DNA of 64,000 bases from NCBI GenBank assembly GCA_977020255.1, contig CDROCS010000943.1, positions 124,001 through 188,000 on the forward strand. Direction: 5' to 3'. Below, piece after piece: positions 250 to 45,269 of the stretch. The notes beneath the pieces are model-generated. The model worked only from the letters and a program-made list of their open reading frames with translations, was not told where the DNA came from and made no database searches. The DNA comes from Obrimoposthia wandeli. Lineage: Eukaryota. The first letter of the stretch is position 1, and each line of letters opens with the position of its first letter. Both the position numbers and the translations under genes were made by a program.

Positions 250-279
250 AATAAATAAATGAATGGTAAGGAATAATGT

Positions 280-481: not shown

Positions 482-506
482 TTAAATAAGAATAAAATAT
501 TTCTGT

Positions 507-3317: not shown

Positions 3318-3559
3318 ATATTGTTGGATCTTTATTTTCTACTTTGTTTTCTCATTTATTAACAATAATAATTTATTAATAGGAAACAAAAGAACCTATT
3401 TAACCTAATGACATAACCTATAGTAAAATATATTTTGATCCTAAACATGCATAAAACTCTTACATCATTTAACCCTTTACATACATTTACTTGTTTTCCC
3501 ATTTAGTATTACATCATTTAACCATTTCCCAGGCTTCCAATATCTTATACTTTATTTTG

Positions 3560-14821: not shown

Positions 14822-15330
14822 TCGAGGAGGGGAAAGTGGACTAACCCAAACAGAAGTTTGCAAGTTTGAAGGGAATTAAATTTATTGAAGGATTTGATGT
14901 GAATTGGTGCGAAAGATTAAAAAAGAAGATGTAATAATAATTGATGATTTGTATCAGGAAGCTAACAATGAATCAGACTTTAATAATTTAATTACAAAGA
15001 TTGCAAGACATCGCGAAGTAACAGTTATATTTATCACTGGAAATCTTTTTTCACCAAGGAGGTCATCATAGAACAAGAAATCTCAATGTACATTACATAT
15101 TATTTTTAAAAAATCTTAGTGATCAAACAGTTGTCGATTTCGTGGCCAGACAAGCATTTCCCAATAATAAAAGCTTTTAGTTGATTCATTCCATACTGCT
15201 GCTAAACAAGTAGATGGGTATATATTTATAGACTTAAAACAAGCTTTCCGCAATGAATTACATATTTTAACAGATGATTTTAATTCTAAGGGAGTAACTG
15301 TTTTAAAACAAACAGAGAACAATTTTAAAA
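14822..15330 (+). pseudogene. Polinton packaging ATPase, central/C-terminal part
   Basis: Walker B VIIIDDLYQE, then KIARHREVTVIFITGNLF, RTRNLNVHYILFLKN and GYIFIDLK; frameshifted. Confidence 0.85.
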
Positions 15331-15610
15331 AATTATTTGCAATGCGTTTTAAGAATTTGATAGTAAAACGTAAATGAAAAGTAAAATCAAAGCCTAAGAG
15401 ATCGAAAAAAATAAACAATAAGAAAAAAGAAGTGAATAAATGAATCAAGTCTGTAGTTCGAAATAAAAGAAAACTTAAATGGCTTCGAATACAAACCATA
15501 TTAAATGACCTTTTTAAAATAATGAAAGTACAAAGAATTATACCATATTTTAAAGCTTTTATAAAGTTTTGGGTCGAATAAAAATTGGAAAACGGAAATA
15601 TGTATTAAAG

Positions 15611-16537
15611 TGTTAAGATCCAGAATTGGACGAATTTAATAAAAATAATTAAATAATCGGCTATATTTATAGTCCTGGCCAAGAACATTTCGTAACTCTG
15701 AAAATTAAATTAAATTATTAAAAAAGGGAAAAATTTAGAAAATTAGGAATTTCCAAGAAATGGAAATTAATCGATCCCATGTGACTGCTGATTCAACAGC
15801 ATAAATAGAGTCACATGAGACACAACAACACTCAAGAAGTACATTAAGTCGAGCAACAGAAGCAGAAGTGGATTGTTCCAACCTAGAAGAAAAGAAGAAT
15901 TTTCTTCCAAACAAACTGGTCGCTGATTCGCCAAAGGAAACTATAAGAAGAGAAAAGTAGCAGAAGTAGATAGTAATAATCGCGACAATCGAAAAAATCG
16001 AAGATGCTGCCAGAACGAATTTTCCCACAAGAGAACACTTGAAGAGGACTACACAAGAAGCCAGGAACAAACCGACGAGGAGAGGATGAACTCGCGACAG
16101 GATCAAGGACGAGTTATAAACGGCGAGTAGATTAATTAATTTTGAAATCATCTTTCCTTAAAATTGTTTGAACTTGATTTTTTGTAATTATCCTGTCAAC
16201 GGAGAATTAGTTTAGTTATTTAAACTCTTAATTTTGAACATTGTACTGTCCTGTACACGGACAGCTTCTTGTTGATAACCAAAAACATCAGAGCAAAAAC
16301 TGTCTAGCCTGAAACAGGCCTGAGCCTTATGTAACCTTTACCCTTGTCTATAGATATAAAATTAGCCTGTAAACGGCACAAACAACACATTTCCCAGACA
16401 CGTCTGAATAAATTAGACAGCGCACGAGACTCTCTTTTATCATTGTGTAATTTTAAACCAACGTATTTGTTTTGTATTTTGATTTGGCATAGAATAAAAG
16501 TTTTTTATTTTGAATAAAATTGTTTTCAAATAAGACA
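15611..16537 (+). mobile_element. solo LTR, TGTTAAG family (copy B1)
   Basis: TGTTAAG...AATAAGACA termini, TATA-like box and AATAAA near the 3' end; colinear with 40711-41817. Confidence 0.65.
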
Positions 16538-16700
16538 TAGAACCAGGAGAGGCTGTTAATTGTTCGAGAATAGTTTGACGGTATACGACTATAGAATATA
16601 GAGAATAACCCCATGTTTAATCGAAAAATACATTTTTAGAAGCCATCAACTCATTGATCAAGCGAACATTTAAAATTAGAATTGAGGCAAACAAAAAACG

Positions 16701-17985
16701 TTCAATAAGTCCCTAGCCTACCATAGAAAACAGAAAGTAACCAAATATATTTTTTTATTTTACAACAACATGTAACTATATAAAGTCTTTTTTTTGACAT
16801 ATGATCCATTTTTGTCGACACATTTTTTCCAGCGGATGATTAGTTCCCGGAAAGCCTTTTCAAAGAAATCAGGCTCACATTTATTGAAAAAATCACGAAC
16901 ATTGTTAATCAAATCATCTCTGCTGTCAAACTTAATGCCTCTCAAATGCTTCTTAAGATACTGGAAGATGTAGAAGTCACTAGGTGCGAGGTTTGGGCTA
17001 TATGGTGGATGATTCAGCAGAGAAAAGCCCATCTCCAGAATTGTCTGTCCTGTGAGGTTTGCAGTGTGCACTGGCGCATTATCCTGAAATAGCCATAAAG
17101 GTGTGTTTCGTGCTTTGCGTCTGTTCTGTCTTGTAATTGTTGCAAGATTACTGTAGTATGCTGCATTAATAGTGCTGCTTTCTCAGTGAAATTTAGTTTT
17201 ATAACACCCTTTGTGTCCCAAAACACTGTCAGCATTGTTTCTTTTCGATGAATTGGTTCCAATCTCATTTTGTTTGACGGATTCTCATTTGGAAACTTCC
17301 ATTCCTTGGATTCACGACGAGATTCGGGCAAGTACATAGAAAGAGTTGTTTCATCAGTTGTTACAATGTTACTTAGGAAACGGTCACCCCTCTGTTCATA
17401 AAGTTGCAAATTTTCAACACAGCACTCCAATCGATGATTCATCATTTCGCCAGTCAAAAACTTGGGCACAAATCTTGAACACAGTTTTCGAATACCCATA
17501 TATCTTTCACCATTGTGTGAAGGCTTCCCACACTGATATTACGACGAATGAACATCACTTTAAAAGAGATTCTGCGTTCATTATTCACGATCTTAATTAA
17601 TTTTCCCTTAACTTGATCTGGAATCTCTTGAGGTCTTCCCGTTCTTTCATCATCAAACACAGAATGCGACCATTTTTAAAATACTTGACCCACATTTCCA
17701 CAGTAGCATAACATGGATATTCACCCTTGTACGTATCTTGAAGCATTTTATTTATTTCAGTTGCGTTTAGTCCTTGCAAAACAAAAAACTTGATAACACT
17801 CCTGTATTCCACTTGATTTATCATAAATTTGAAAATGTGCCACTAAAAATATAAACAAAAGTAACACATTAAAATAAAGTATTTAGTTTTTACTTATATA
17901 TAATTATGTAGTTAAATGAAAAAATTAAGGATTGTATCTATCTTTTTACTATGGTAGGCTAGGGATTTATTGAATGTACCACGTA
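16701..17985 (-). mobile_element. mariner DNA transposon (DD34D), frameshifted transposase 17824->16760
   Basis: HTH N-terminus, SRFVPKFLT, VTTDET, QDNAPVH, HPPYSPNLAPSDF. TIR TTCAATAAGTCCCTAGCCTACCATAG at 16701 and its inverse at ~17949-17974. Confidence 0.95.
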
Positions 17986-18009
17986 CCTTCAGATAACTTT
18001 TGAAAATAA

Positions 18010-18914
18010 AATGTTAGGTCGTCCATACAAAACCTATTATTCTAAAGAACTCCCGCACCAGAGGTTACCCTAAGAAGTACTTCAACTCTGGTCCAACAAA
18101 AGAAATACAAAAAAATCTTCTAGATATTTGTAATGAAAAATATTTAAAAAATGAAACTAAATTTTTTAAAAAACAGAATGGAGGTTTCATAATGGCTGTT
18201 ATACCAGTTGTTGCTTCAATTATTAGTAGTACTAGAGCCGTGACACGGACATAAATATTTTAAAAAAATCACCTTAAGATATGAGTGCTATCCCTTCTTT
18301 ACCTATTTTTTTAAATATTGTAATTGTTGTAATAGAAAAAATATGGCTCAATCAAAAAGACTCAGTTGGCTACATATGAGTTTCAAAATTAATAAAAAGA
18401 GCTAAAAAGAATTACAAGAAAACGCAAAGCAATCAGTTTGTTTACAGTAGGAACAAGCCGATGAGACAGTTTCTAACAAGTGTGCCTAATAATTTATGGA
18501 AAATGGATTTGAAGGAGGTGACTTCATTTTCTTTTATTAAGGTCCTGTCTCATTGTAAAGATACAGGTCGTACTCGCAGGTACAGCCAGATCTTAGGCTA
18601 CATTGTAAAATCATCGGTAAACAATATGGATCTGGCTGGCTTAGAACATTAGATAGATTTGCCTTTCCTCTTTTGAAGAGACTAAGACGATTTATATCAA
18701 AATTAGGAAAGGACTACCTTTTATCCAAGGATAATAAATGAATATTAACTTTAAGAAGCTTGAACTTAATGAACTTGACAATGTTCTACCATAGGTTGCT
18801 TATTTAATTAGAAAAGGTAAATTAAGTAAAAATCAAGAAGGTAAGGGATTTAAACGTAAAAAGAAACAAAATATCGCTATAAACAAACGTAAGAAAGTTG
18901 GAAATATTCAAAAA
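18010..18914 (+). pseudogene. Polinton basic core / protease-processed virion protein ORFs
   Basis: KQNGGFIMAVIPVVASII, KQYGSGWLRTLDRFAFPLLKRL and NQEGKGFKRKKKQ lie directly before the MCP start. Confidence 0.6.
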
Positions 18915-19430
18915 ATGAGTTGCGCAAAATCCGAATTGTGTATTTTTGATAAACCTCTTCCACAAGTTATTGTAGATAATGCTTTCAATGAAGAAATATT
19001 TCTAGTTAACTCAGTTTCACAAACAACCTTAATCAATTTAGAATTTAATATTTACTTTTCCAACATTGATTATTTAGATTTGAATGATACTTTGCTTTAT
19101 GTTCAACTATAAGTAACAAATCAAGATGGTACTAATTTAGCAGAAAATGCAGATGTAACACCTGTTAACTACTTCTTTAATTCTTTATTTAATGATGCTA
19201 TTGTTATTCTTATAATGTTAAAATTGAAAGTAGGAATTCTTCCTATGCTCATAGAGCTTTACTTTAAAGTCTATTGAATTGTAGTACTGATATTCAAAAT
19301 ACTAATTTTGCAACCATTATTTTTTTATAAAACGACTACTAATCGTCAAGAATGGATTTCAGTCTATAGCTTATTAAATATGAAATTAAACTTTTTTAAA
19401 CAACCAAAATATTTATTTTCGAGTGTGAAG
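18915..19430 (+). pseudogene. Polinton major capsid protein (double jelly-roll), N-terminal fragment
   Basis: CAKSELCIF..P.PQ, LEFNI, YLDLNDTLLYV, VTPVNYFFNSLF: typical Maverick MCP N-terminus, with stops. Confidence 0.8.
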
Positions 19431-20759
19431 CCAGAACCCAGTCTCTGAAGAAATCTTTTGTATTCGTCAGGAGACAAAATATATCCGTGGATCTAAAGAC
19501 CAAGAAACCTATCGAGAAACAGCTCCGGAAACCAAAAATCTAGCGTGGAGACTAGTGTGAAAATCTATGTCATACATTACCACCGTACCAGGGACACAGG
19601 ATGAAGTAAAACTCAATTCGGAGAAAATATATGACTTCTTGCAAGGAACATATTTGACGATCAAAGGAAGAATAAGAAGTACCCTGCATTTCTAATATCC
19701 GGGTCCTACATGGAGGCCTACTTGTTCTACTTCAACGATGGAGCAGGGATTGTCGCAAAAAACATTGTGATTGAGCAAATGAAATGTGTACAAAACGTTC
19801 TGTGTAAGTAATTGTTAGAGCTAAATTTAAAGGAATATTAGAATAACAAATATTTAAATTACTATCCTTAAAAAACTTTTAAGCATATAAATAACAATTT
19901 CTTAAAGTTATGAATACAGTTTATATCAAAATACTTATTAAAATGTTATGTTGTGACCCACAATTAAGAATAATAGTTTTAAAATATTAATTAATTTGGT
20001 GTAAAATTCACCTTTTTACGAATAACTTTTTAAAGAAAAACCTTAGATCAAAATTGGAACTACATATAAATTAGTAATGAAATATCGATTTATTTCATGT
20101 ATGCTCGAAAGTTTTTAAACTTTCATATTAAGAAATATCCACAAAAATGGGAATTTTGTTAATTAAAAAGTTAATTGATAAAACTTTGAAGAAGAATTTC
20201 TAGACATCTAAAAGTTGCAAATAAATTAACAAAACTTCATTTTAAATCATAAGTTATTTCCCATTGAAAAATGTACGGCTCATAAAAATCCCACCTTTGG
20301 GTAAAAATGTCCTATAGTATAAGAAAGTACTTTACAATACTAACAGGCAAACACACCTACTAACGGGTTATCCAATGGAACCTAAGTGGGCAAATTATCT
20401 AAAGGACCAAACCCCATTTAGATTAAATTAATCAAAATCAAAAACCCCAAAAGGAAGACCCGGGCACTACATAGAAATTAGAAGAATATAAAAACCCTTG
20501 TTTTTGGGAATAGATTCATTAAAATTTTACTGTACATCCTCCAAAATGTTATACAGGTGATTTATTTTTTGTTTGTGCTATTTTTGTTTTTACTATTGTT
20601 TTGTTGTTGTTGTTAAAACTTATTATGAACTCTCAAAATTGTTGGCCCCCTGGCCAATTTTGATTTGTTGTAAATAATAAAATTATATTGTAATATTTAT
20701 ATAGAATAATTTTTAATATTTAAATTAAGCCCAACATAATGATTTCAAAAGATAAATTC

Positions 20760-23546: not shown

Positions 23547-26500
23547 CTGCACGATGCAAAGCCGACTTCATCAGACTTCTGATACTGGGACTCACACAGT
23601 GTCTCTCACCTGCGTTGACCCTTATTCTAACACTAAGAAGGAAATGATATTTTCACAAATTCTATAAATTACACGAATTAACATTTAACGAAGGTTTTGA
23701 AAACACGAAAATAATTATTATTCATAGAATTTTAGCCATATGGTACCGTACAGCATGAGATATGTTTTGATAATATTCAAATACGTAGGAATTAGTCTTT
23801 AACAACATATTTTTATAATGTCAGAATGTAATGATCAAAAATATTTGTCTTTATAATCTCTAGCACTTGAGGTTGATGACACGTAATTTATTATTATTAA
23901 TGTCATAGCAGCTCTTTGTCTTTAAAATTATTTATATTGTTATAATTTCTTCGAAATAAAGGAAGTTTCTCATATAAATGTTCATAGTAAACTTAAAATA
24001 TTATATTTCTTTTTGTTGTTGAGCTTTAACTGATTGTTCTGATTTGTTTTTGATTTTCTATATGCAATATTTTTAATAAAATCATTTCTCATATTTAACA
24101 AGGATGTCTCAGTTGAGTATTATTGTCTATATGAATGGAATAAACGTAACTTCCTGTTGAACTTTTTATTAATATTAGCACACTTTATTATTATCTTTAT
24201 TACTTCTAAAACTAGTTTTATCATTGTCTGTTGACAAAAAATTGAAATCCAACGTCACAACCCACCACAGACTTTTCATCAACAGTCATTATCATTACTT
24301 TTTACTTTATCGATTCATATTTTCCTCTTCACATTCATAACACAATAACAATTAAAACCGTAGTTTGGCTAATATATCGACATGTGTGTAGTTACAAACC
24401 AATTAACAAATTTAAATTACAACAAAAAGAAAGCTTACGGTTGCCACGTGTGTGCGTGTGTGTCCCCATGGAAACCAATTTCCCCCGAGTACGTCAAGGT
24501 TATTCGAAGATCATTCTTTTGCATAAACGCTTCAATATTTGTGCACGCCACATTCTAATTTTCGATGTCAAATTTTCCAAAAAAATCTTTTGTTTAAATT
24601 TTAAAAAATTTTTAAAAAACCTAAAATATAAAATTTAAGAAAACGTAAAATATTCAAAAACATAAAATTTCCAAAGTACGGGAAAATTTTCAAAAAACTT
24701 AAAATTTTTATATTTTGTATTACTTTTATATCACAAGTAACAAATATTTATCAAAATTTAATCTTAGTGTTTCATAATATTATCCAAAGGAAACTTTCAT
24801 CATAAAGACATTATATAAAGCATTATCATTTAGTTAGATCACATTTGTTTGAATAATATAATATGAAATTGATGTATTTAAACATAATTTTAATCAGATC
24901 AATGTATACCATGTGTATTTTATTTTAATAGGAATTTTATAATATTATCCATTGTTTTATAAAATGAGAATTTGTTTTAACACATCAATGCAATCAATTA
25001 CGCTGGGAAGAGTATATAAGATAACTTTTTAGTTTCATTTCATTAATGATAAAAAGGAATACAAGAGAGAAAAGTTATTGAATGAGGTCCTGAACAACGA
25101 GAAGCCCTTTCTAGCCGAGAAATGCTATCTCGCAGAAGATTTGATGCTCCGGGAGTCTCTTGAAGTAGAAGAGATCCCGGGCCTCATTGGTTGATCTCCA
25201 AATGGCCAACCACTCATACTGCCACATAAAGACTGGCAGTGAATCCTTCACATGCATGACAAGTCCACATTAGAGCTACATCAGAATTGGAAGGGAGGGA
25301 CTCTAACTTTTTATTAGAGTTTTTGGGTGTCTTAAAACATTATATAGAATCATATTTTTAAAAACTTTAGCTACTTACTACTAAAAGTAGTCAACTATCT
25401 ACTGGTAAGAAATTCATTTCTAATTTCATTTAAATTTTCATCAAAATAAGTAGTATATAATTTACTAAACTTTATCAAAATACATTTGATTTCACATTGT
25501 AAACAAAATTGTGTTTTAACACATCGAGGAAATCAATTAGAGAGAGAAGACTATAAAAGAGAAATTCTTTAGTCACATTTTATTATTTTAACAATGGATT
25601 TCCCATAAATGAAGAAGCTATTGGTACGGATAGTGAATTCAAAGAAAGGAGACCTGCATAATCACGTTTTAAATCCTTATTTGTTTGAGATCGTCAGAGC
25701 AGAGTAGAATGAGAAGCTGGGAGCGGTACAAAATAGACCACAAGCTTAAACAAGAAGGATCCGGAATGGAACAAGAAGGTAGAGTTAGAGAATAGAGAAT
25801 TGGCAGAAAGAAGGAAGGTGAAGATGGAAGAAAAACGCAGAAATAAAAGTCATTTGTATCGAGCATGCTATGTGACTTAGGACATATAAATATGCATTCG
25901 TTAAATACCCTAACCCCATCACTCTCGTCCTTAAATTTCCCTATAGCAGTGTTCGCCGTGGTGTAAAGAGGATGTTGTTGTGCAAACTTTGAAGTATCAA
26001 GAATACGGACTTCTAACATAGCCGGTAATAATTCATTGGGAACATCTACATTTCTACATTTTAAGAAGAAACTATCGGTATCCCCAGCAAGTATTCGGAT
26101 ATCACAATCAAACTGTCTCCTATATTTTTCTAACTCTACATATTGCAACTTATACATACGTAAGTTACTAAGATCTAAAATAGCCTGCCCCATACAGCTA
26201 GGCCTATTCAAGCATATGACTTCTTTATTTAGCAATACAGCTATTAAATCATCATCTATTTGTATCGACTTCCTAAATTGAGCTTTGCTGCTATATGTTA
26301 CGAGTTTCTGAGGAGTGTTACAAATCCTTAAATTAATTCGTTTCATCAAATTTTCAATTAATTTTCCCAAAAGCGAATTAACCTTCAGTTTGTAAAAATC
26401 CTTATCAAACTTATTTTGCGAAGAAGCTCTTTTTTGAGTATTATAATCTATATAATCCGCAAAAAAAAAATTTTTAACCTTACTGCTCGATGAATGAAAT

Positions 26501-29500
26501 CTACTTTAGCACCAAGGCTAATATACATTTCCAATAGGCAGGAATGAACAACATACTTTTTCTTCAGATAATGCGTCATTAACAATTTTTCATCTTTACT
26601 CACAGGAGGACACGGCTTTAAGAGGGCTAAAGGGAAATCGTCAAGGAAATCATGTAAATGATTGGGAATACTTAAATTTATTTCTTGCTACAAGATAAAT
26701 CATTGATTATGTTTCCTAATTCCTCTTGATCTAATACCCACTGAAAGTCTCCCACTGGTAGATATTGCGACATCGCCCATCATATAGATTATTAATATCT
26801 ATATAAAGTATATAATCCCCATCTGATGTATCTACTTTATGAGTGTTCACGAAAGTCATACCGCCCCTTATACCGTATGTGAACAGTTTGTGCATCTCAG
26901 GGCCTTGTAATAACTCCACCCTTTTAGCTGATTGACCGTTTGCATTGGTGGATATTGAAAACACCGACTTGAGCGCGCTAGTAAAACTGAGACCTGTAAT
27001 GGAATAATAAATTAAATTTCGAAAACTTAATTATTGAAGAAACACTTTAAGTAAATCAATAATACTAACTGGGTATTGAGAAGAAGTTCAGAGGCTCCAG
27101 TCCGTCTTCATCAATGGCCTTTAATCAGAATGCGGTGAATAAATATGCGAGAAGGTACACATCCAGCTTCAGATAATGGATCATGTAGTCCCATAGATAT
27201 GTGCTTTCCATCTCGACCCACACCTTCTTGGCGAGCTCATATTGATTATCCGTGATTTCTGGTTACCATTTAGGCGGCATACTGGTGATGTTTCTGAGAG
27301 AAGTCTCTGATATGGCCATATCGTAAGGAAATATCCCTTTTCCTCCTATTAGATGAAGCAGGAACACTCTTTTCGTTATTAGCACATCTCCGACATTCTT
27401 CACTAGTTGATCGAGGCTAGCATTCAGGAACTGCAGCGAATAGATGAATTTGATTGTAATCTCCTCGAAGCGCACAATCATTGCCTGGAACTTCTCGTTA
27501 GTTTGGGAATAACACCAATTGACCAATGCGAGAATTTACTCAATGCATGCTTCAGAATATGGTGCATGTCATTTCCTCTCAGGTTATGGGAAACGACTGG
27601 GAGAAAACGACTGGGAGAACACGACTTATCCGGGGAGATAAATTACACGTATAATGAGCAGCACCTAGGAATTCTCCGGTTATGTGATAATGATCCCTCA
27701 TCTTCTTAATGCACCGTTTCTTACACTATACGTGCAAGTAGTTGCAGCATTGTAGCTAGCTTGCTGCATTGGTGTTAGCGGCCGTATAACGTCTTGTACA
27801 TGCTGATTATACCACGAAAGAACTGTTTCTTTTGCTATCATTTCAATTTTCCTAAGAAAATCTACTACACAATTTTCTACAGTGAAAAATGAGTAAATAT
27901 GTGTCTAGGCTGCCTTGATTAAAGATAGTAGCATACCTGCCGCTATTGGGATATGCTGCTGATGATGGATCCCATGAGGTGTAAGCACCACCTCGAAATC
28001 AGCATATATGGCATATGGAGGTGAAATAGTTTTTGAGAAATCCATAAACTCTATATATTTCTCATCGGGCATGGTGTACAATGTTGTATTATCAATATTT
28101 TCAGTACACAGTGGGACATGCTTATGAAACGACTTGATAAGTCTAAAACCATGTAAGCACTTATAGCACCACTTACATTGGATAATAACCGAAAAACCTA
28201 TACGAACATAAGAGCCTATTTAAATCAGGAACTGCTACACAATGATACTTATCCTTATCCACCAAAATAATGAGATTTATGGGCTGGCCTCCTAAATTCG
28301 TACTCCGAAATATTACATCAATATATGGATTCTTATATATCTCCGTTTTTATGGCAAATTCCCTATATGATTATACGTAAAAACGTTAATAGAAAGCTCA
28401 GAGTTTTCTCTCTCAAAGCGCGGAATATTACCTAATTTCATAGGCATGTCACTTTCATCGTAATGCAACTCAGATATGAAAAGCTCATAGGCTTGCGGTG
28501 TATGTATATTTCTAGGTAATAAATTTCGTTTCAAAATAGCCAAAATACTAAATATGAAACATAAATGATTTCCTATATTCCTAACATTAATTACCGCATT
28601 AGCAATCCCTCCCGGTGACGAAATGTATGATTGCTCTTCCAGGTAATTAATTTCACTAGTTTTAGAGACTGTGAAATAAATCTCTAGTAACTTATCCACA
28701 GACCAGTTACTTTTGCGTTCCGAATACTGCTCCAGTTTCGAAGTCAGTAACGCGGATCCATCTTGAAGAAACGATTGTGAAAAAAGAATTGCCCTATTAG
28801 TGACAATCCATTGCTTTGTGTTAGTTACATTTGAGAACTGTATATTAACCCCAAACTGAATTTTTCAGGTTTCAAACTGATCTATCACCTCTCTTAGGGC
28901 ATCCCAAAGATCCGGAGGCACTACAATAATAACTAAATCCCTATTTCTCACATGTAATGAAAGTGAGCAATGAACTCCATTCAATCCCCACTTCTTAACC
29001 ACATTCCCGATCCTTCCCTGCTTCCCCAAGGCTCATCCAACTAACAGCATATTCCGTTTTCTAACACCGGCGGATGTAGACATCCCGGATAAACTTAGCA
29101 TAGCTGGGCCGAAACCACCGACAGTACTACTTAACGAAGTAGATACCGCCACAGAGCTATGAATACCAACAGCAGATATCGAAGCAGCAGATCTCAAAAC
29201 AGGTGATGATGAAACGATAGCAGCAAATGAAATCAATAAAATAAACGGACATTTTTAATCAATTCGTTTTATTTAAGATTGTTTATATCCCTTGTTTATG
29301 CTTTAACCATAATAGACAAAGTTACCCGCATGTCCGTGTTAAAGCATTTTGCTAATGTTTCTTACTAAAATGTACTTTCTTTCCAGAGTCAAGTACTGTA
29401 GATACAAATTTAGATACCATAGGAGTCAAAAACAAATATTTCTTTTTCTTTAACATGTATTACAATCCAATGTTCTCCATGCAAATTAGATGAATGTGTA

Positions 29501-32500
29501 TTGATTACATATCCACCTAGACTCCATTGAAACGTGATCCGAGTAGTTTTCTCCCGTTTTTTTTAAATCTCAAACGAACTATATTATATGTTAATTGATT
29601 AATTCAAACGGACTTACTTCATTAATGTATTCTTGTTGTTGTCGTTCTGTTTATAGTAGTACGGTACCAAATGCTTTAAACTATTAACTAAAACGGATTT
29701 GAATCTGTCATGACTATAATCACGTTTTAACAAAACGATTTGTCGAGTTTCCATTTGAGCATCAATATCGTCATTACTAATATGATATTCAACAATACAT
29801 TCATTCTTGATACCCATACTAGACGCTTTACACTCTTGGGTATTAAAAATTCAATTTGGCATAGTATCAATAAACTCAAGTCGGGGTACCTATTTTCTGA
29901 TAGAAACAACATCGATATGAATCATTCCAAATATAGACATGTGGGAAAATCGATAATGTAGGTATTTCAATTTCAATACAATCATTATTTCTTACAATAA
30001 CTACTTTATCCATTGGAGTGGTATCAAAATCAATTTTGTGAAACATAATGTGCAATAAATTTAGTAGGCATAACAAGATATAATGAAGAAACTTTAGGCT
30101 TATATATTATTTGAAAATCTAATTTTAGACCAATTTGCAAATTACTACCTTAAACAATATTTCGATATTGATTTTATTGAAAATTAATAATCAAGCGAGA
30201 GCAAGCACATATATAGGTTCTGGTAGTAATTTATATGCTAATATGTATTATAATAGAAATATTCGTATAGAAAATATTAATCCAACACTGAAACAATAAC
30301 AAGGCCTACGCGCGTAACTGAAGAACGTAAGCCCTCAAAGGATATGACTAATACTAAACAATTTACATAAACAACATTATTAACAATTAGAAACAAGCTT
30401 CAAAGGATAAACAATTGAATATTTGAAATTTAAATTGTAAATATGAATTTTGAGAATCCAAATTTAGAAAAGCTATATCAGCCTATGCATAAATATCACG
30501 GATATGATATGCATTTTTTGAAGAAATCTCACAACTATAATTTTATTTTTCCTGTCAACATAGAGACGCTTAGATTTGATTTTCAGGTATCAAATTTGAC
30601 TTCAGTAGATAGAGAGAGAATCAATATTATCTTCAAACAATTCGGGATCAAATATGAGATTCAGGAAAACAAATTCATAATCAAGGGACAAAATGCCACT
30701 TTCAAGTAGGAAAATAAAACAATATTCGATGGACATCCTCCTAGATTAGAATGGATTCTCGAAATCAGATTTCAAGTATACAAGATTGAACCCTCTGGAT
30801 TCATAACACTTATATGTAAAATAATCGTGGCAGTTAGAGTTGACTAATAAATTTTTATATGTCTATCTTTGTTTTCTACTTTTTTATAAACAATAGTAAT
30901 AATTTAATTATACTTTATAAGAAAATGAGTGAAAATGCTACTACTAAATCATTAAAAACTAAAAAGACGAAAAATAGTAAAAAGAAAATGATGATAGTGG
31001 GGACTGAGGGTATTCTTTTTATAGTAGGCAATCTTTTAAGTATATGGCTCGGTGGGGTTAATACGAGTGCTCTAAAATTGAAAAATAATATGAATTATAT
31101 TGAAGGTATACAAGAGGGGAATGGTATACTCGATATTTATGTAGGATTACATAAAGCATTCACCTCAATTAAAAAGAATCCTAGTGCATATCTTGGTACA
31201 AAACCTTTCACTAAACAATCCAAAGATCTAAATTTAAAAACATAAAATTAACACATGCTAAATTGTAACCTAATAATTTAGTTTTATAATTTTATGTTTA
31301 TTGAAAATTTTAAGTTTTTAAAAAGTTTGAAAATGTTGAAATTTGAAACAAAAATATTTGTTTAAAACAAAAATGAGCTTGATGCGTTTAAACAAAATAA
31401 TGATCTTTAAATGACCTTTAAATGACCTTCACATGACCTTGATCGTATTCGGGAGAATCAGTTGCGATGGGCACGCACACGTGGCAACCACATGTGTTGT
31501 CATGGCGACTTATGTACGTTTCCATGGCTACAACCTACGTACTCGGGAGAATCTTTCACTTCGGGAGGACCTATTGTCTTGAGTCGAAGTCATCACTTCT
31601 CCCTACTTCCACGATAGAAGAAATCAGGTTCTGTAAAATGATCCAGTCATAAGGTCAAGTTTTGATATCTTCATATGAAATTCAAGAAATGGAAATCGGG
31701 CGAATACGGCAGGTGAAGTAACACATCCCATCGAAACAGTTCTAATGTTTCTTAGTCACGTTTGGCAGTATATGGTATTGCACTGTCATGTTGAAAAATC
31801 CTTTTGTCTTATCTTTTGTCATATTCTGGGCGTTTTTCCTTAAGCTCAGCCGAAATTAACTAATTGTTCTTGTTAGCGATCAGCACTGATTGTTTCAGAC
31901 GGTCTCAGCAGCTCATAATAGAAAACGCTTTTCTGGACCCATTTTATACACCTTAATTGCACGTTGGTTTTATTTTGACATTGATGTTAATGGCTGGCCT
32001 GGTTTCACTCATGATTTTCTTTTATTTGGATTATAGTAATACATCCATTTATTATCACCAGTAACAATTCGTCGGAAAAATTACTTCTGTTTTTGCTTCC
32101 GAAGCAAATAAGTTAATATGTCTTTCATTTGAATCATGGACTAACCCATTTTCATATTTTTGAATCATTCTCATTTCTTTTAAACGTTTGCTTACAGTCA
32201 ATATATTTTTTTTAAAAATGCGATATTCTAAATGTTATAAAATTAAATCCTTCTAAATATCTAAGCAAAGTTATAATAATGTTGCTCAACTAAAGTATGT
32301 TTCTATTTCAAATATGTGTGCTTGCAATTTTGAGCACAATTTTCTTGTTTATTTTATAGTGTTGTCAAAGTTTTCTGTTTATTCAAAACTTTTGAAAATT
32401 TAAATAACTTTATTTCAGTATATTTCAGTTGCAATACTTTATAAGAAAAACAGAAACAGAACAAACAAGAACAAAGAGAAATGACCAGAATATAGATTCG

Positions 32501-35500: not shown

Positions 35501-38500
35501 TTTAAATATATTATTTTTTCCCGTCAAATGATAGTATTATGTAATATGTAATATAGAAGCATACATTAAATTAAAATTTTGCAACACACATTAAAATTGA
35601 TTTTAAAGTATGTCTATCGGTCAATTGACCGGCTTGGGACTTCTGGTGTTATTGTACAAAGGAAATTATTCCAGTGAGTCATATTAGCAATGCCACGGCG
35701 ATAGTTTTTTATTATGGCTTATGGTTTTACTGATCGATATGCTGAGTTTCACAGTTATTAACCCTCAATACGCGGGAACCGAGATAACTCGGTCCCGACA
35801 AATACGCATACAGTGACGGGAACCGAGTTAACTCGTTTTTAGACAGGGGATTTCCCATCGATTTCCATCGAAGCCGTTGGCAGAAGGGTACGAGAATATG
35901 ATGCTGTGCCGATTGACACCGACAACGACCTTCCAAATGATTTATTACTGAATTGGTCCCGAGATTAGGATTACCGTATTAAATACATAGCACAGTGAGG
36001 GTTAAGGGACAATGTTTACATCAAATGTGTCACTTTGGAAAATTGATGTGTAATAGATTTTTAATAATGAGACACGAAATTATCAATGGGGTATTATATA
36101 ACCAGATAATTAACGCACACAAGCACATGAAAGTGCAACAAATTTCAATTAGGTCAACACAAAGCCCGATTGGCCAATCCTTCAAAACGTAATTACGAGA
36201 TTCAGTAATTTGCTGAATCAAGTTTTTAAATAATCATTAAATAACAAATAATTAATTACGTTTAAACTCGAACAATACCCAATCCCATTTGTTAAACAGT
36301 ACAACAATATGACGGAGACGTTTTAAATACTTTGCATTTGTAAAATGAAATATATAAGTTTGTGAACTTTTAATAATTATTTTAGCTTTTTGTAACCGTT
36401 TATTAACCTTTTGTGTAATCGATTATGTTTATTCTTTAAGACCTTGAGCTTAATAAACATACATTAACCCCCAAAATTCATATAACCTTCAAATTTTGAG
36501 TGTACCTAGGATATACGCAAGCATTATACTTTAAAAACTCACGAATAATAACATTGTCGCAAGATTAAGTCATCCTACATAACTTGAAATTTCACTTTAC
36601 TATACATATTCGCATGGTGCTATCCTAGATCTAATGAGATTTCATAAAATTATAAAATACGAAGATCTGGGTCACCATAAGTGAAATCTGATCCTTTTTC
36701 AGTAATCTGAGAATGCAGTTAACATATAAATTTGTAACCAAAAATGTAATTGTGAAATGCTTTTAATATTCCCTTAAAATTATAATTCTAACAACCACTA
36801 CATCTTCAGACCTGATCTTGCTAACTTTCACTACACAAAATTCACTGTGCAGACTTGAAATTAAAGTTGTAGCAAGGACTGAAGCTCTTTAAATGTGCTT
36901 CAACGAAGATTTCTGCAGGATTTTAAAGCAGAATATATAAGAACAATTGAAATGCAACAACACTACAGAATAAATTGCAGCTTTTCTGAAGAGAAATGGT
37001 TCAGAATAGAATGGTTAATAAAAACCCAATTCGGAATGAATAAATTACTACCTCGACAAACCTACGAAACATGCTTACATATTACGATTTTATAAATTTC
37101 TGATAATATTAAATGAATGTTTTGTGTTTTGCTACGGATTTCTGGTGGGTACCCGTTATATTTACAACATAATTCAGTCTATTTTAGAAGAACGCTTTCT
37201 TCTGTTAAGGCAAGTCATGGAATTATAAATAAAATTTGTCAATCATGTTATTCAAAGAATATTTCTACAAAGTAATTAATGATATAATTTTAAAAAAATT
37301 AAATGCCACATTTTGACTTAAGTATACCCCACTACAAAAACTAAAAATGTCATTGTATGCAATATAAACACACACACACATATATAGCTAAATGCAGTCG
37401 ACCATCTCTATATGACAAAAGAACTAAAAATGTTAGACGCTGTTAATAAAGTGCTACTAATAAATGGAATGTTTTATCTGTATGAATACGACCCGCTAGT
37501 CTAAACATTCCCAAATCTTTGTACATTTATCCATGTAAGATGGCAAGGTGGTACAAATTAGTAATAGTCACTTGCTGAATCTTTCAAAGTTTCATAGAAA
37601 TTAGTTCAGTTTTTAGAATCATTCAAAAAGTAAGATGAAAATTTAACAAAATTGGAATATTGAAAAAAACATGGCACTACAAAATCTATCGAGAATGTTT
37701 AACTCAATTTTATTATATAAGATGTCGATCTTTATCATAGAACTTCTTGAAACAAGTTCGTTTTCAAAATTTCGTAAGTATCAATATTCTTGCAATTTCG
37801 ATACAAAGTGTCATATGAGATCTGAATATGACATCTCGCATGATATATTCTATCAAAATGATAATCTGCAAATTCTCTATCCTGTTTAACGTTCTACAAA
37901 ATATTTGTCAAACTACAACAAAAATCCTCTTGAAAAAGACGCAATTTTGGATGAGAATAAGCACGCTATCGTCGATTGTAATTGTTTACGGACAACATTT
38001 ACGCTGATCTTACTTCCAAGGCCGTCCCAGAAGTAGGTTCCCAGCGGTCCATTCAGGACATGACGCGGAGACCTGTTCATGATTAGCACAGTGAACAGAC
38101 CACTCATCAGAGCGCACACCACAATTAAACCCAGAAATACCAACACCACGATCCATATCACAACAACGTCTCCACCGTTGCGTACTATTATCTCTTGAAC
38201 TAAAATAAGATAGATAGAATAGAGAACTGCAACAGAAATTTACCTTGAAAGCTTTCTCCCCTTCCGGCATTTCCCAGGCCGTAATCGAGGATTTTATTTC
38301 CAACAAATAAACCGACAGATACGTTTCCTTTAAATTTCCCGGTAGCAACATCACTAGCGGAAGATTCAACTGTTTCAGACACATTTTTTACAGCTCTGTA
38401 TCTGTACCAATCCCCAACAGAAAAAGAAACACTAATGCATGATATAATTAAAAGATCTACAACTATAATCACGAAAAATAAGGATTTTCGTGCAACTTTG

Positions 38501-38511
38501 TGCTCAATCAT
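23260..38511 (-). CDS. CLRN: clarin-family tetraspan protein, 3 exons (38511-38244, 38199-38014, 23546-23260; 246 aa)
   Basis: KFKGNVSVGLFVG...YGLG, VLNGPLGTYFW, a final TM preceded by GYCFYF and the C-terminus ILMY* all match clarin-1 motifs. GT-AG introns of 44 nt and ~14.5 kb are phase-compatible. Confidence 0.85.
24436..24700. repeat. left TIR remnant of Polinton 2
   Basis: The reverse complement of GGTTGCCACGTGTGTGCG...CAAGGTTATTCGAAGATCATT...AAACGC matches 31385-31490. Confidence 0.8.
25046..25194 (+). pseudogene. small conserved Polinton accessory protein (homolog of 2513-2695)
   Basis: ...EKCYLAEDLMLRESLEVEEIPGLIG*; start apparently shifted by a 1-nt loss. Confidence 0.55.
25845..28960 (-). 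pseudogene. protein-primed family B DNA polymerase (pPolB) with embedded endonuclease VII-like HNH module
   Basis: N-terminal AVINVRN...CFIFSILA, HNH DHYHITGEFLGAAHYTCN, Exo II HNLRG.DMHHI, motif A YIDINNLY, motif B KLKVNSLLGKLIEN, motif C AGDTDS; many frameshifts. Confidence 0.92.
29284..29590 (-). pseudogene. adenain-like (C5) cysteine protease of Polinton 2
   Basis: GYVINTHSSNLHGEHW (His), FVFDSYG (Asp), QNALTRTCG (Gln, Cys); with stops and frameshifts. Confidence 0.8.
29614..30076 (-). pseudogene. frameshifted hypothetical Polinton ORF
   Basis: Three overlapping ORF fragments in tandem upstream of the protease; no family recognised. Confidence 0.4.
30443..30846 (+). pseudogene. Polinton accessory gene (possible OB-fold SSB), homolog of 2928-3317; one premature stop
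   Basis: LYQPMHKYHGYDMHFLKKSHNYNFIFP vs LYQRVHTYHGYEMHFLKNPIHYNFRYP; FQVYKIEPSGFITLICKII vs IQGYKIGPSGLVTPIWKII. Confidence 0.65.
30922..31245 (+). CDS. hypothetical basic Polinton protein
   Basis: Lys-rich N-terminus and a Q-E-G-N-G motif like those in the element 3 core proteins. Confidence 0.35.
   Translation, partial: KMSENATTKSLKTKKTKNSKKKMMIVGTEGILFIVGNLLSIWLGGVNTSALKLKNNMNYIEGIQEGNGILDIYVGLHKAFTSIKKNPSAYLGTKPFTKQSKDLNLKT
31270..31607. repeat. right TIR of Polinton 2 with X-box-like palindromes and an 11-bp TGACCT array
   Basis: Inverse of 24436-24700 plus the outer segment ending CCCTACT. Confidence 0.8.
31650..32180 (-). mobile_element. mariner transposase fragment
   Basis: RRIVTGD-KWMYYYNP, YYELLRPSETISADR, IFQHDSAIP, LELFRWDVL; heavily decayed. 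Confidence 0.7.
32769..33450 (+). mobile_element. internally deleted mariner
   Basis: TTVYEWVNR...LNARWELKLLTVEQK N-terminal remnant; degenerate TIRs TACGAAAGTTATTCAAAAGT / ACTTTCGAACAACCC. Confidence 0.6.
34750..35400 (+). mobile_element. possible Tc1/mariner (maT-like) transposase fragment
   Basis: NWPMSGPDL resembles the WPxRSPDL motif; the rest is very decayed. Confidence 0.3.
38014..38199 (-). CDS. CLRN: clarin exon 2
   Basis: VQEIIVRNGGDVVVIWIVVLVFLG...LNGPLGTYFWDGLG; AG/GT boundaries; phase 1-1. Confidence 0.9.
38244..38511 (-). CDS. CLRN: clarin exon 1
   Basis: MIEHKVARKSLFFVIIVV...GLFVGNKILDYGLGNAGRGESFQ, donor GTAAAT. An upstream in-frame start at 38553 is also possible. Confidence 0.85.
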
Positions 38512-40710
38512 ATTTTCAATAGATTTGGGTTTTAGAAATCTAATAAAATACATTTATACAGTTTGATTGTTAAATAATATTTCGGAAATTAACGTTGTAC
38601 GACCTGTAGATGTCAGTAGTAGATATGATTTAATTAACTTTTCAAACTTTTCATAATGAAAATTTTATTTTCATATAAGTTTTACAAAACCAAATTAAAA
38701 ACGTTTTATTTGAAAGTGCTAGTATCCTATAATAATATAATAAACAAAATAATTTTATTATTAAACGTGTCTTTCATATCTACTCATTAAACTAAATATT
38801 CCATATGCAATTAATTTTTTTTTAATAGCATATAATGTTATTATTTTCAAAGAATATTGAAATAAAATATATAATAATGTATATCAAACAAAACTATAAA
38901 ATAATTTAAACATTTGTTTTATTTTTTTAATATTTAACTTTATTAGAATTATATAAGAATAAAATAAATCCTTTTCGATACGAAAAATCTTATAAAATCT
39001 ATGTCAAAATATAATAGTAATTTTAAGAAATCGTTAAAATGACTAAAATTGTATATTCAATTAAATGTAGGTAAAATTTTATAATAATATACTTTAAAAC
39101 AAAATTGTGGTTGTATATTTCACTTTTAATTATGAAATTTATTACATATTAACAAATAAAATTTGTTTAATTTCTTTAATTGAAGTAAAATTTCGTAATT
39201 ATCAGTAGCACTGTTGTCAGTCAATACAATTTGTGATAACATTTTGTGTGTACCTTATTCCAGAAGCATGTTTGAGTTTATATATTTTGATGATTTTTAG
39301 TAGCTGCCGTAAAATTACAATAATACTAAAATAAGTTAAAAAATACATTAACAATATCTTGACTAATACAAAATATAATAAATCAAATTATGCGTTAGAA
39401 TTTAAAGAATTTATTTTCCTTACTGATATTCAAAAAAATATTTGGCCTGAGTAATCAAATATTTTACAATGTCATTTAAATTTTGCTTACCAGAAATTTT
39501 CAATTATCTGGAAAAAAAAACGTCTTTGTTTCCTTTATTTGCTATCATTTACTATAGTGTAAGTAAACTAAAAATAAAATTTATTTGCTCAACACATTTT
39601 ATATCTTCCCTAAGGCTTTATTTCTTTATTCGTAGATCAAACAAAAATAATCATATTCCATTAAAAATATTATTAATTTTGCTTTTTAACAACTTTCTTA
39701 AAAACATAAGATGCAAAATTATTTTTAAAATAATCATATATTTTTAGCAAAATATTGATAAAATAAAATAACAATATCAAGATAAGTAATTTTAAAGAAA
39801 ATATTAAAAATAATATTAAATTAATTTTAAATACAATTATTTTTTTATGAATAACCGACATAAAATGTAAATAATAAAAATCATCGTTTTTTTAAATTCG
39901 TTCTAATTGACTCCACCCAGTATTCATTTAATAAAAAAACTATTTTAAATATTGATTTTTTATTAAATTCTAACTTACATTATTTATTTTATTTAAATTT
40001 TTTTAATAAAAATATAATATTATAAGTTTTTAAATTGTAATTATTTGTAGACTTATTTATTTGCTATAAATATTAGCATGTGCAGTTTATGAATGTTTTT
40101 TAATATCTAAATATATAAAAGTCAAATTCTAAAATTTCACAAAATTATCCTCTGTTTATTTCACTTTTTAACTTTTATTGATTATATTTGCAGCAATCAT
40201 GCAAAAATATTTTTGAAAATCATATTGTGTAGTTTTAGAAACAATTTTTAATAGGGATTTAAAAGATTTCTTTGACATATGTTTAGAAATTGAAATAAAA
40301 AAATTATCGCATATATTATAAAAGTAACATTTTACTGAAAATAAAATGATTATTATCTTTAAATTATAATATTGCAATCATTAACTGTTAAAGAACCTTC
40401 TTAAATGGAGCAGTAATTTTGGAATGATAATAAAAATGCAGAAACATCCTGGGAAACCACCAAGTAGGGATTTTCAAACAATTTCCTCTGGAGATTCATC
40501 GATCCTACATGAAGTAGAAAACACCTTACGCTTAATGTTTGATTTCTATCACTTTTTGAGGATATATTATATTTACAGGTACCATTGGAATTATTCAAAT
40601 TTTGTAACATCCGAACTTACTCAGAAAAATTAAGTAATTACTGGATCACTAGAAACAAATAAAGGTACAAATTTTTCGTGAATAACATTTTTCAACAGGT
40701 TTTAACTAAG

Positions 40711-41817
40711 TGCTGAGGTCTAGAAATAAATGAATTAAATTAGAGAATATTAAATTAAATGGCGTTATTTATAGTCCTGGCCAAAGACATTTTGTAAGCC
40801 TGAATATAAAATATAATTACATTTAAATAAAAAGGGAACAATATAAGAAAATTTAATTTCTCCACAAAAATAAAATGGATATTTAACTAATCTCAGGTGA
40901 CTGCTGACTCAACATAAATAACAGTTACCTGAGACACACAGTGGAAGTGGATTTGTCAATCTGGAAACTGCAAAAAACACAAATGAGCAGCACCAGATTG
41001 GCCCCTAGCAATTTTTGGAGAAAATTTCTGAGAATCTCAGAGGAAACAGAAATTCCATTGGCTCAGAGTTTATTGACCTACCGAAACAACATAAGAAGAA
41101 GGTTATAAATATCGACACCATTTTCGACGAAGAATTATCGAACGAAGAGATGAACCAGATTTCGACGAAGAATTTTAACTTAACGAGATGACCTTAGGAC
41201 TCGACAAGATGAGGCATTGAGACGTCGAACAAACGAGCCAAAACGGACAACGGACAAAATCAGACGAGAGATCGAACAAGCGAGAAAGGAGCTCAAGAAA
41301 CAACAAATAGACGAGACACTATTGACGAGGAAGGACCTACGACATAACGAAAGAACCGAAAGGATTTAGCAACTTCAGCCAATTAATCACTGCTATAAAT
41401 TTATTTTGCTTTTAAAATATCAAGAAAATAACGATTAAACGAAAATACGATACGGAAAAACTAAACTACATTTGTTAAATTTTAATGAGTAATTATCATT
41501 ATAAGACCAACAGCGTTTCAGGCGAGTAAATGTAAAATTTGGGTAAAATCTAGTCAGCCTGAACCAGGCCCCAGCCTTTTATAACTTTCAGCCCTATTTT
41601 GTTAGAATTAAAACCAGCCCGTAACGGTTCGAAATTCATTATACCAGACACACCTGGATTAATTGGACATTTTCTTTGTAACCCCTTTTTAGCATTTTCA
41701 TGTGTTAAGTTCTATTTTATATCCAACAAATTTTGAGTTTCATTTTTATAATTATTATAACAAAATATATTTTGCTTAAAAACTCTTTTGCAAAAGTATA
41801 TCATAGATGATAAAAAA
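40711..41817 (+). mobile_element. solo LTR, TGTTAAG family (copy B2)
   Basis: Colinear with 15611-16537; 5-bp TSD CTAAG at 40706-40710 and 41818-41822. Confidence 0.7.
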
Positions 41818-44800
41818 CTAAGCCCTAAAAACGTACTTTTTCTAAAAGTCATAAACCCTGTTAAGCGAATATTTGCAATTAAATTGAGGTAAAGAAAACA
41901 CTTATTTTAAGATAGTTTTTGAGACAAAAAAGATAGGCCATCCAAACAAGCCCGATCACTCTAAAGGACTCAAGCACCATAGGCTTCCCTAACAAGTGTT
42001 TCAACTCTGATCCCAACATAAGTATTACAACAATGTTAAAAGAAACGACTAATTTTCTGATGAATTTTTTCTGTATTTTGTAATCCATAACGAGAATATT
42101 GGGCTTTTATTGTAGAATATAGAAAACCCTCAATGTATTATCTTTCACAGTCAGGTATAATCTGAGCAACAGTATCAGCTAAGCATTGATAGGTCTTGAT
42201 TTATAAATTGAGGTTTGAAATTGAAAAATGTATTTATATTCTTTACATACAATTTGACCGATTCTGAAATACAAAGCTTTTTTCTTTTCATATCAATTAA
42301 ATAAAATTATAACCCTGTACACACAGCTGGTAAGACACTGAACTTTCTTAATAACACTTTTATGATCAATTGGACAAACATTTTGGTCACTCGTAGTTCA
42401 CACCAATCAAACTGTGTCAATGCTCTCTTGAGAATATTATTGCACACAAAAGACATGATGGAGCTCAGTTGAAAAATTCAAACAGCACAGAATTCAAATG
42501 CTTTTATGTAAATTTACTGGAGTCCATCAATCAACGTACCTTTTAACAACTACACCTATGTATTCAACATGCTATATACCAAGTTAATCCATATGACAAT
42601 TATTTTGTTTTTTATAAATTATATGATTTACAATCTCTAATTTTCTGTGCATTTTTTTAATTCACAGAAACTTAAGATACATCTTGAATATGCAATGTCC
42701 CACAATTTCTTTCCAGTTTATAAAACAAAATTTGAGAAACATTAAAACATATTATTATAAATTTGGATAATTTTCAACAGCTGCTCCTTCGGTTAAAAAT
42801 GTTTTAAGATGCTTCTCAAAAAATGTTACAGTATTTATGACAAAATTATGACAATATTGGGAGAAGACTTTATCCTTCAGATGTTCTCACAGGAAATATT
42901 GAAGTTGTGAATAATCCAACCACCTTCCAGCACAATTCAAAGGGCCATTAGTGCCCTCCTCAAACACTACAAAATAATCACGTACAATTCATCCATATTA
43001 AGCAATAACTGCAACACGAATTCCATCTTGGAGCTGGCCAGGCCTATCTTCTATGATCAGATTTGAGGTCAAATAGCGTTGATGTCATTTTATGTTGTTG
43101 TCAAGCACATCTGAAATTGCTTGAAAGTGATTATTTAATGGGTAAGGATCTGTTTGAAGATATTTAACTTCGGAAAGAAAAAATCGAAAAAATCGAAAGG
43201 ATATGTTGATATATCATTGCAAAGAGCTCTGTTTCTGTTGCTAAATCCATATAAATACTGTTTGAATAAATATTTCGGAAGTGCTTTTATTTTAGTTTCT
43301 TTCGAATTTGTTTATTTATTTTGTCTCCTATTTACCTGAACGTTTTTTTGAGATTTCTTTGTCAATTCTAATAACCCTGTGTTTTATGTAGGTAAATATA
43401 TTAGTTTATTGTATAATTAATTTCGTTTTTTATTAAATGAAAATCAAGATAAATATGCATTTTGTTGTGATATAAATAGTTAATTATTATAGTTAAATAT
43501 TTGGTCAATTAAAAAATCAATTAATTAAATGAGCAAATATCACAATATCATTCCTGAGTGATTTAAAATTCAAATCACTAATCTAATTAGCATCGCCAAA
43601 CAACAAATTCAAAAAGAGCACAAAACACACAAAAAAACAAAATCAAATCAAGGCACAACAAATCAAGCTCAATCCCAAACCAACAATCTTCATACTGACA
43701 TTACTATTACTTTTGTTCATCCGGTTTATTAAATTTGAATAAAGCAATACCGATTATTCGTTATTATTTTGTAGCTTCCCAACTTCTCACTCCCACAAAT
43801 CGACACAATACATATATATTAAAACCATATATCATCATATTATATACATTTTTCCAACGTTTTGTAAAAGATTCAAAATCTGTTAGAAAATATTCTTGAT
43901 TTCTAGATTCGAAGAAGTAGACTACTTCCGATTTTATACTTTTACAATTATCAAATTTCTTCCATCCAAAAATGACGATTAATGCTTGAAAATATGAAAA
44001 TTAGTTAGAGCCAAGTTAAATGAATATGGAGGATGTGGAAGAACTTCATGCATCAAGTACCTTAATTTATTCTGTGTTCTAATCAAAACATGTGGTCTGA
44101 TATTAGCGATATGAAAATAGGCTTTTTTCAATTACTTAAACTAGATAGTTTTAATTTTAAAAAATAATATAAATTTTAGTGCTATGTGAGTTCTTTCTAA
44201 AAAAGTGTATTGTATAATGGGTCATTGAATGATAAATTTTCGTTGTACGTTAAAGTGCTTTGTGTGTTTGGGTGTCTGTCTATAATAACCAGACATTACG
44301 TTGTTTGATTTATAAATTCAAGATGATGAAAAAGTCACCATTTTGACGAAGAATAAAGAATTCATGAATTAATATATTATCAACTATCATTTGTTTAGAT
44401 AGAATTTACGCACAAATTGTAAATCTTTTAATATTATGATTTTTTTAAAATTCATGAAGTACCGTTTCTTCTAACTTTTTCAATAAATTAAGTGCAGCAA
44501 ATATCTGGAAATGGTCGAGTAGTGTACCTGAAGCTTAATTGGAGTTCCTGACAAGTAAAAAAGGAATCAATTTGACAACTTACTTCCGATTGTCTTTATT
44601 TATGTTAATAAGAGCTCCACGACCTACTTGGTGTCTAAGTCAGAGATCCGAGACTAATTTTCAATTTATCTTTGATTGTTTCTTTCATTAGCAGAACCTT
44701 AACTAAATGCTATATTTATATTTCTGGATGCTCACGTTGCCGTGTGATATTAATTTCTATTGATACAAAAATGATCCGCTTTTGGTTTTGATACTAAATT

Positions 44801-45269
44801 CATAATCACATTTTTTAATATAAAAGTTATAAAAGTGTTCTAATTACCACATACATTTAATAAACACGTAAAAATGGAAACTAATATAAAAATGTATTGA
44901 AATTTTGATAGTATCAACCAATATTAATCATGCAACCACATAATTAAATAAATATTAAAGGTTTTCTAATTCAATTGTTTAATTTGCTACAACTTTTGAA
45001 AATTTGAATGTAATTGAGAATGTGCTGGAAAATATATTTACAATCAAATGTAATGACAAAAATATTCTAATGACTTCTATTATATGCTTTATATATTCGA
45101 TGACATGTATACGCCTAAATTGTTTTAAAGAAGTCAAAAATAAACAAATACCAACAATTTTGAAGTCTTCAAACGGTATGTGATTTTCCATTGGTCACAT
45201 ATTCACATTTTATTTGTGAGACAAAATGAATCTTAGTTAAACAATTGACTGACAGCGACCAAGAAAAGA

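Follow-up and report, generated by a model that had tools for sequence, protein, structure and literature searches.

The 64-kb window analysed here, a stretch of 64,000 nucleotides from the genome of Obrimoposthia wandeli, contains a Polinton copy lying between an inverted left terminal inverted repeat (TIR) remnant at 24440–24493 (+) and a right TIR whose outer terminus occupies 31596–31607 (−). A broken gene for protein-primed DNA polymerase B (pPolB; 25855–29203, −) faces outward toward the left TIR, and its tblastn pieces are 43–70% identical to a family-C pPolB, with a weak match to PF03175, a domain that is present in the pPolB of the relatives of this element. Next come fragments of an adenain-type protease gene (29292–29517, −; PF00770 on the family-C counterpart), a broken conserved Polinton gene without a usable Atlas match, which we call orf147m (30443–30826, +), and a 128-aa ORF (30859–31245, +) that is seen mostly beside family-A elements and has neither a Pfam match nor a usable Atlas match, the last two facing outward toward the right TIR. 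The right terminus reads AGTAG inward, a Polinton-type end, and the same word opens other copies. The pPolB and protease remnants, the AGTAG right end and the inverted left TIR remnant together bear out the original prediction that this element is a Polinton.

The window copy is a relic that is broken and has lost internal sequence. No match to an integrase, capsid or ATPase gene was found between the protease fragments and the next gene of the element, and it is because neither an integrase, an ATPase nor another central gene was matched between the TIRs that we regard it as internally deleted. The left TIR remnant, which aligns to the right TIR in inverted orientation, begins abruptly near 24438, and its outer ~115 bp are gone together with the terminus and the first two X-box units described below. 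More complete organization is seen in six ~14-kb family-C relatives, which encode pPolB, an integrase and a protease and show a weak A32 ATPase match, the capsid not being identified by Pfam. These six were picked as paired X-boxes, so that one perfect palindrome per TIR is expected; no strict X-box match was found in their interiors. Target duplications of 6 bp were present in both of the two family-C elements checked, the corresponding left end of the window copy being lost.

Polintons are very abundant in this genome, with 29,534 and 40,269 first-look candidates returned by polymerase queries and several families that have differing TIRs and gene orders. Within the window, positions 1–4237 hold the end of another Polinton, of family E, with its terminus at 4237, remnants of ATPase, phosphatase, TBP-like and orf147m genes, and no X-box, while further Polinton remnants (ATPase, integrase and other conserved ORFs) lie at about 14800–19500, split by a mariner-type transposase. 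A TBP-like ORF (PF00352, E 7e-12) lies beside a dual-specificity phosphatase-like ORF (PF00782, E 3e-7) in the Polintons of this genome, in the window at 1383–1709 (−), and the two constitute transcription-related cargo.

Read inward from the right terminus at 31607, the TIR presents a conserved 14-nt block (P1; 31538–31551, −), X-box unit 1 at 31518–31531 (−), which is 77 nt from the terminus, X-box unit 2 at 31496–31509 (−), a half-site designated unit 3 (31480–31488, −), unit 4, which is decayed in this copy (31461–31474, −), a second copy of the 14-nt block that closes the cluster (P2; 31444–31457, −), and three AGGTCA nuclear-receptor half-sites (31412–31442, −), the outermost of which is a full TCAAGGTCA. 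The left TIR remnant retains a half-site (24440–24448), an exact unit 4 (24462–24475, +) and a P2 block (24480–24493). Units 1 and 2 and the left unit 4 are the only three exact matches in the window to GTHNYYATRRNAAC, a pattern that comes from the original prediction and not from a paper, and which we take to be of the DAF-19 type. The three exact sites lie where that prediction had placed them, and the decayed site and the half-sites at 24440 and 31480–31488 that it also named are present. The four full sites are not independent, because the left unit 4 aligns with the decayed unit 4 of the right end as its TIR counterpart, and they lie 2–3 mismatches away from the palindrome. Under the stricter RFX1 consensus printed in PMC3414849 (GTNRCC-N0-3-RGYAAC) none of the four matches, and thus the claim of an exact X-box consensus holds for GTHNYYATRRNAAC at three of the four full sites and not for the stricter definition.

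The number of X-boxes in the window is not significant by itself, as three or more GTHNYYATRRNAAC matches occur in 8 of 100 dinucleotide shuffles of the window (shuffle mean 0.58). The signal lies instead in their confinement, with all three exact sites falling within about 231 bp of TIR, and in their recurrence in other copies. The earlier argument that such sites would be unlikely to cluster by chance is therefore upheld for TIR confinement and recurrence and fails for the bare count.

To follow this recurrence we compared copies sampled in several ways. A first look through the 1.35-Gb genome gave 965 candidates for the window TIR, and the best 39 besides the window copy itself are 73–81% identical. 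A family-A set of 33 copies, 29 of them gathered by TIR similarity (with the window copy included and one duplicate removed) and four via the polymerase, carries a palindrome site within 2 mismatches in 30 copies and within 3 in all 33, compared to 0 of 660 shuffles within 2; GTHNYYATRRNAAC is matched in 25 of the 33. A motif-blind set, consisting of 40 of the first 42 listed among 438 exact matches to a terminal 22-mer (two already sampled were omitted), has a site within 2 mismatches in 19/40 and within 3 in 22/40 (shuffles, 0/1000). Among its 18 negatives, in our reading, four break off just past the terminus and 14 are sister TIRs without the X-box cluster, which have AGGTCA arrays and mostly P blocks too; the X-box module is missing from 14 of the 36 informative TIRs that share the family-A terminal word. 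Sampling through the polymerase was less productive: the fetched stretches for family-A copies mostly lacked an adjoining TIR (the terminus was reached by 4 of 20), and a first unbiased polymerase set of 70 loci sampled other families and gave just two stray X-box matches. Enrichment over background and retention within the family, both of which the original prediction had implied, are thus found in the two TIR-based sets.

X-boxes recur in further TIR types beyond family A. Genome-wide, GTYRCCATGGMAAC has 921 + 929 strand matches, compared to 14 + 6 for a reversed control. The first 100 listed matches represent 67 distinct sites, 66 of which were examined; by blastn, 49 of 60 listed sites fell into TIR types A, A2, B, C or D, and six more lie in verified family-C elements, so that at least 55 of the 66 sampled strong X-boxes belong to these types (49 if A2 and D, which are less firmly tied to Polinton genes, are set aside). 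X-boxes are thus borne by types A2, B, C and D as well as by A. Of 20 type-D copies, 9 have Polinton-type ends and 19 bear a site within 2 mismatches. The RFX1 consensus is matched in 10/33 A, 24/26 B and 1/7 D copies, and in 8/8 C copies, which were chosen by the motif. In the outer GC-rich TIR, hardly any word other than the palindrome can be aligned among A, B, C and D, apart from a downstream block that B and C share.

Other Polintons of the same genome lack the X-box altogether. Families sampled via an outgroup polymerase had none (F2, 0/11; F3, 0/13; G, 0/1), and neither did the single family-E end in the window (0/1). Given the absence of X-boxes from F2, F3, G, E and the sister TIRs, Polintons in this genome do not need them, and because X-less sister TIRs with the same terminus exist alongside X-less families, the module is optional. 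Taken as a whole, the X-box cluster is an inherited, optional TIR module. In its C-terminal part, the polymerase of A shares 64–67% identity with that of family C, and the values are 70% in B, 75% in F2, 88% in G and 57% in F3. A polymerase tree of 38 selected rows gathers A, F2 and (B,(C,G)) into a single group with weak support; as the tree does not fix the order of A, F2 and B/C/G (support 88/94), gain and loss of the X-box cannot be ordered. AGGTCA/TCAAGGTCA arrays are spread more widely across the TIR families than the X-box, and occur in X-less families as well.

We also examined how the sites vary among copies. In family A, non-modal letters account for 189 of 1379 letters in X-box units and 317 of 1417 in the linkers, a comparison qualified by the GT/CA-rich, slippage-prone composition of the linkers. 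All 8 palindrome departures common to at least six of the 33 family-A copies are compatible with the consensus, versus 52 of 142 rare ones (p 5e-4), where 14 of the 42 possible single changes are compatible. The motif-blind set gave 13/23 versus 12/39 compatible departures with the X-less copies mixed in (p 0.06) and 8/9 common versus 19/42 rare for its 22 positive copies alone (p 0.026), its common variants being largely the lineage variants of family A again and not new events. All of these p-values overstate independence because the copies are related. In family B, 24 of 30 copies depart from the palindrome solely in the central spacer, which the RFX1 consensus leaves free; this family is young and shows no extra conservation of the X-box (7/420 versus 93/4587 for the rest; p 0.72). 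Family D gave a contrary result in a first, gappy alignment (38/124 versus 396/3259) and 25/238 versus 348/1890 after a re-alignment that is biased in that each copy was centred on its own best site. The pattern is suggestive, not conclusive, of selection on the X-box.

A hairpin role for the X-box was considered and rejected, as no unit pairs with itself in the centroid fold and the bases at mirror positions often fail to match; at units 1 and 4, just 2 of 33 copies have complementary bases at positions 4 and 11. Common variants sit at positions that RFX tolerates and break the palindrome, which favours a protein site over a hairpin. The P blocks are conserved to the same degree as the X-boxes, and the TTCTCCC part of P1 pairs with the terminus in a predicted single-strand fold. 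The P block also recurs in X-less sister TIRs.

The TIRs contain further candidate regulatory words, with YCAAGGYCR in 27/33 A and 25/26 B TIRs, E-boxes in 26/26 B and CRE-like words in 6/8 C. TCAAGGTCA itself is described as an ERR element in PMC5979530. A forkhead reading of a downstream TTTGTTT tract is not claimed, as RYMAAYA (PMC3414849) is missed by one base when judged by eye. The distance from the terminus to the first X-box is 72–146 nt in A, 135–142 nt in B, 181–371 nt in C and 194–235 nt in D, and it varies inside families. Genes adjoining both TIRs face outward, and in family C the closest conserved start codon that points inward is about 1.85 kb from the X-box, so the X-boxes do not appear to be core-promoter elements of the linear element. 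PMC5838959 reports that functional human X-boxes lie mostly within 500 bp of the start site; the distance of 1.85 kb to the start codon fits just the permissive range of that study.

Host genes that could supply the corresponding factor are present. Scoring of 20 candidates gave five PF02257 matches at four host RFX loci, and none of the PF02257 matches placed an RFX-type domain on Polinton coding DNA. One of these RFX genes lies in the window, 14 kb from the right TIR, with two exons of the DNA-binding domain (45857–46595, +) that match PF02257 above cut-off and a wing segment that matches hRFX1 in PDB 1DP7 (E 2e-7) and retains its DNA-contacting wing motif. A clarin-like host gene is represented by two exons (37916–38553, −) with weak matches to PF25807 (Clarin-2) below cut-off; a Pfam scan, a homolog search, a representative search and an acceptor scan all failed to locate its last exon. 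The RFX gene is divergent from the clarin-like gene at 14 kb from an X-box TIR, an arrangement that is probably a coincidence given the Polinton density.

Combining these observations, we propose that the TIR inherits the X-boxes as an optional module, which active lineages likely kept for binding of host RFX, the window copy being a relic; we give this reading a probability of roughly 0.55. The position, inheritance, spread among families, optional occurrence and variant pattern of the sites are observed, as are the host RFX genes; selection, RFX binding, enhancer activity and cell type are inferred. We consider it likely that X-boxes have a function in Polinton TIRs. In an active element, RFX dimers at both ends would form an enhancer or chromatin-opening cassette, in which RFX may be one optional input of a modular TIR enhancer beside AGGTCA half-sites, with E-box or CRE-like words in other families. 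The likely pay-off would be expression or mobilisation in RFX-rich cells, plausibly those of the male germ line, as would be suggested by the role of RFX2 in spermatocytes (PMC2797782). The original idea that the element uses host RFX therefore survives in part: inherited non-random sites, RFX-like variation and the host RFX genes speak for it, whereas its extension to replication sits poorly with a spacing of 72–371 nt, and the sites are dispensable.

Several other explanations have to be weighed against this one. A palindrome with one or a few origins in a slippage-prone, GT/CA-rich part of the TIR could have been duplicated and amplified without any selection for binding, a possibility we regard as rather unlikely. 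It would account for the dispensability of the palindrome in several families and sister TIRs and for the absence of extra conservation in family B; since the polymerases of X-bearing A, B and C group in one clade with those of X-less F2 and G, a single origin followed by losses is conceivable, and the TG/CG/CA variants of unit 2 look like CpG decay. Such a passenger would not be expected, however, to be kept between TIR types that otherwise barely align, to have common variants that spare the invariant consensus positions, or to vary less in its units than in its linkers. Convergence is a related concern, in that a different dimeric protein, encoded by the element or by the host, might bind sites that merely resemble X-boxes. 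Several Polinton ORFs belong to no known family, and paired palindromes occur in many unrelated metagenome repeats, yet there is no RFX-type domain on Polinton coding DNA, orf147m also adjoins the X-less E end, the 128-aa ORF has no match in the six full-length family-C elements, and the tolerated positions agree with the RFX consensus; we judge this explanation improbable.

The placement of the sites bears on two further alternatives. If RFX were an origin helper for protein-primed replication, comparable to NFI and Oct-1 in adenovirus ITRs, the confinement of X-boxes to the TIRs, at both ends, of a pPolB element would be expected, as would the outward orientation of the adjacent genes, which leaves no promoter nearby to serve; adenoviruses, moreover, gain and lose host-factor motifs in their ITRs (PMC6410123). 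The adenovirus NFI site is nevertheless fixed at nucleotides 23–36 according to the same source, whereas the first X-box lies 72–371 nt from the terminus at distances that vary within families, and because of this variation we favour an enhancer over an adenovirus-style origin site and consider the replication role quite improbable. It seems very improbable that the host has co-opted the X-boxes of the window copy as an enhancer, whether for the clarin-like gene or for the RFX gene close by. The former lies 7 kb and the latter 14 kb from the right TIR, and the stretch from 37500 to 46000 yielded no strong X-box, but the window sites are as decayed as those of other copies, with unit 4 broken and no RFX1 consensus match at any of the four sites, and a clarin intron is no more than a presumed location for the element. 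Proximity to some gene is in any case expected with about 1850 X-box strand-matches genome-wide. The preservation of the sites in the window copy is nothing special compared to other copies, and with the sites 7 kb from the clarin start codon and the last exon not found, the original suggestion that the Polinton donated RFX enhancers to clarin is unsupported.

Returning to binding of host RFX as the preferred reading, one extension of it would be that rival Polinton lineages swap host-factor cassettes at their ends (RFX, ERR/NR5A-type, E-box and CRE-like) to pick a cell type, with RFX opening sperm-forming or ciliated cells, that the ends, as holders of most strong X-boxes in the genome, titrate or rewire the cilia regulon of the host, and that the same strategy recurs in unrelated animal repeats; we regard this scenario as speculative and somewhat unlikely. 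The literature consulted gave no answer as to how and in which cells Polintons switch on, and the present data offer a candidate host factor with sites at both ends, together with sister TIRs with and without the module, which permits a comparison of families within one genome. If bound, these TIRs would contribute more strong RFX sites than any other source in the genome (at least 55 of the 66 sampled) and would confound X-box searches for cilia genes. The biological stakes of the window copy itself are low, because the element is broken and nothing shows that the host makes use of it.

We searched for comparable arrangements elsewhere. No terminal X-box cluster was found at 14 IMG/VR loci with pPolB relatives, most of which stop short of the element end. 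Among the matches listed, none of 120 palindrome-bearing viral loci and none of 120 metagenome loci that have the sites in pairs showed a Polinton protein, many of the contigs being short, and a Pfam scan of 40 of 127 ORFs from viral and metagenome palindrome loci identified MULE, reverse transcriptase and host genes and no Polinton domain. Paired X-box palindromes are present in many unrelated metagenome repeat families, mostly in apparent animal host DNA. Because paired palindromes are this common in unrelated repeats, the X-box word is a recurring repeat feature and not a speciality of Polintons.

Host-factor sites in the terminal repeats of DNA-virus-like replicons are already known; the RFX-type sites in Polinton TIRs are a real feature of this kind at the level of the family. 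The searched text and supplements of PMC8097293 and PMC11414722 do not mention RFX in TIRs, the latter referring to putative, unnamed factor sites in its fig. S6C, and the openly accessible literature that was searched yielded no paper connecting Polintons with RFX. In their general organization the full-length relatives in this genome resemble the Polintons/Mavericks of these two studies, with TIRs, AGT-type ends, 6-bp target duplications, pPolB, integrase, protease and ATPase. Adenovirus ITRs with their NFI and NFIII/Oct-1 sites (PMC6410123) offer a parallel in that both are protein-primed linear replicons with host-factor motifs gained and lost between lineages; the adenovirus sites, however, are fixed beside the core origin and aid replication, whereas the Polinton sites are of RFX type, lie 72–371 nt inward and are variable. 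[quoted passage not shown] The EF-C/EP sites resemble those described here as inverted-repeat RFX sites in viral regulatory DNA, but they belong to enhancers of exogenous viruses and not to the terminal repeats of an integrating element. The AAV ITR is similar in that a DNA virus-like replicon has an RFX-type site within its terminal repeat, in that the site is present in some types only (AAV1 and 2, and not 3–5), and in that the AAV site affects expression. AAV is nonetheless a single-stranded DNA parvovirus with one degenerate site for which binding is shown, while the Polinton is a double-stranded DNA element with one to four near-palindromic predicted sites per end, in hundreds of copies.
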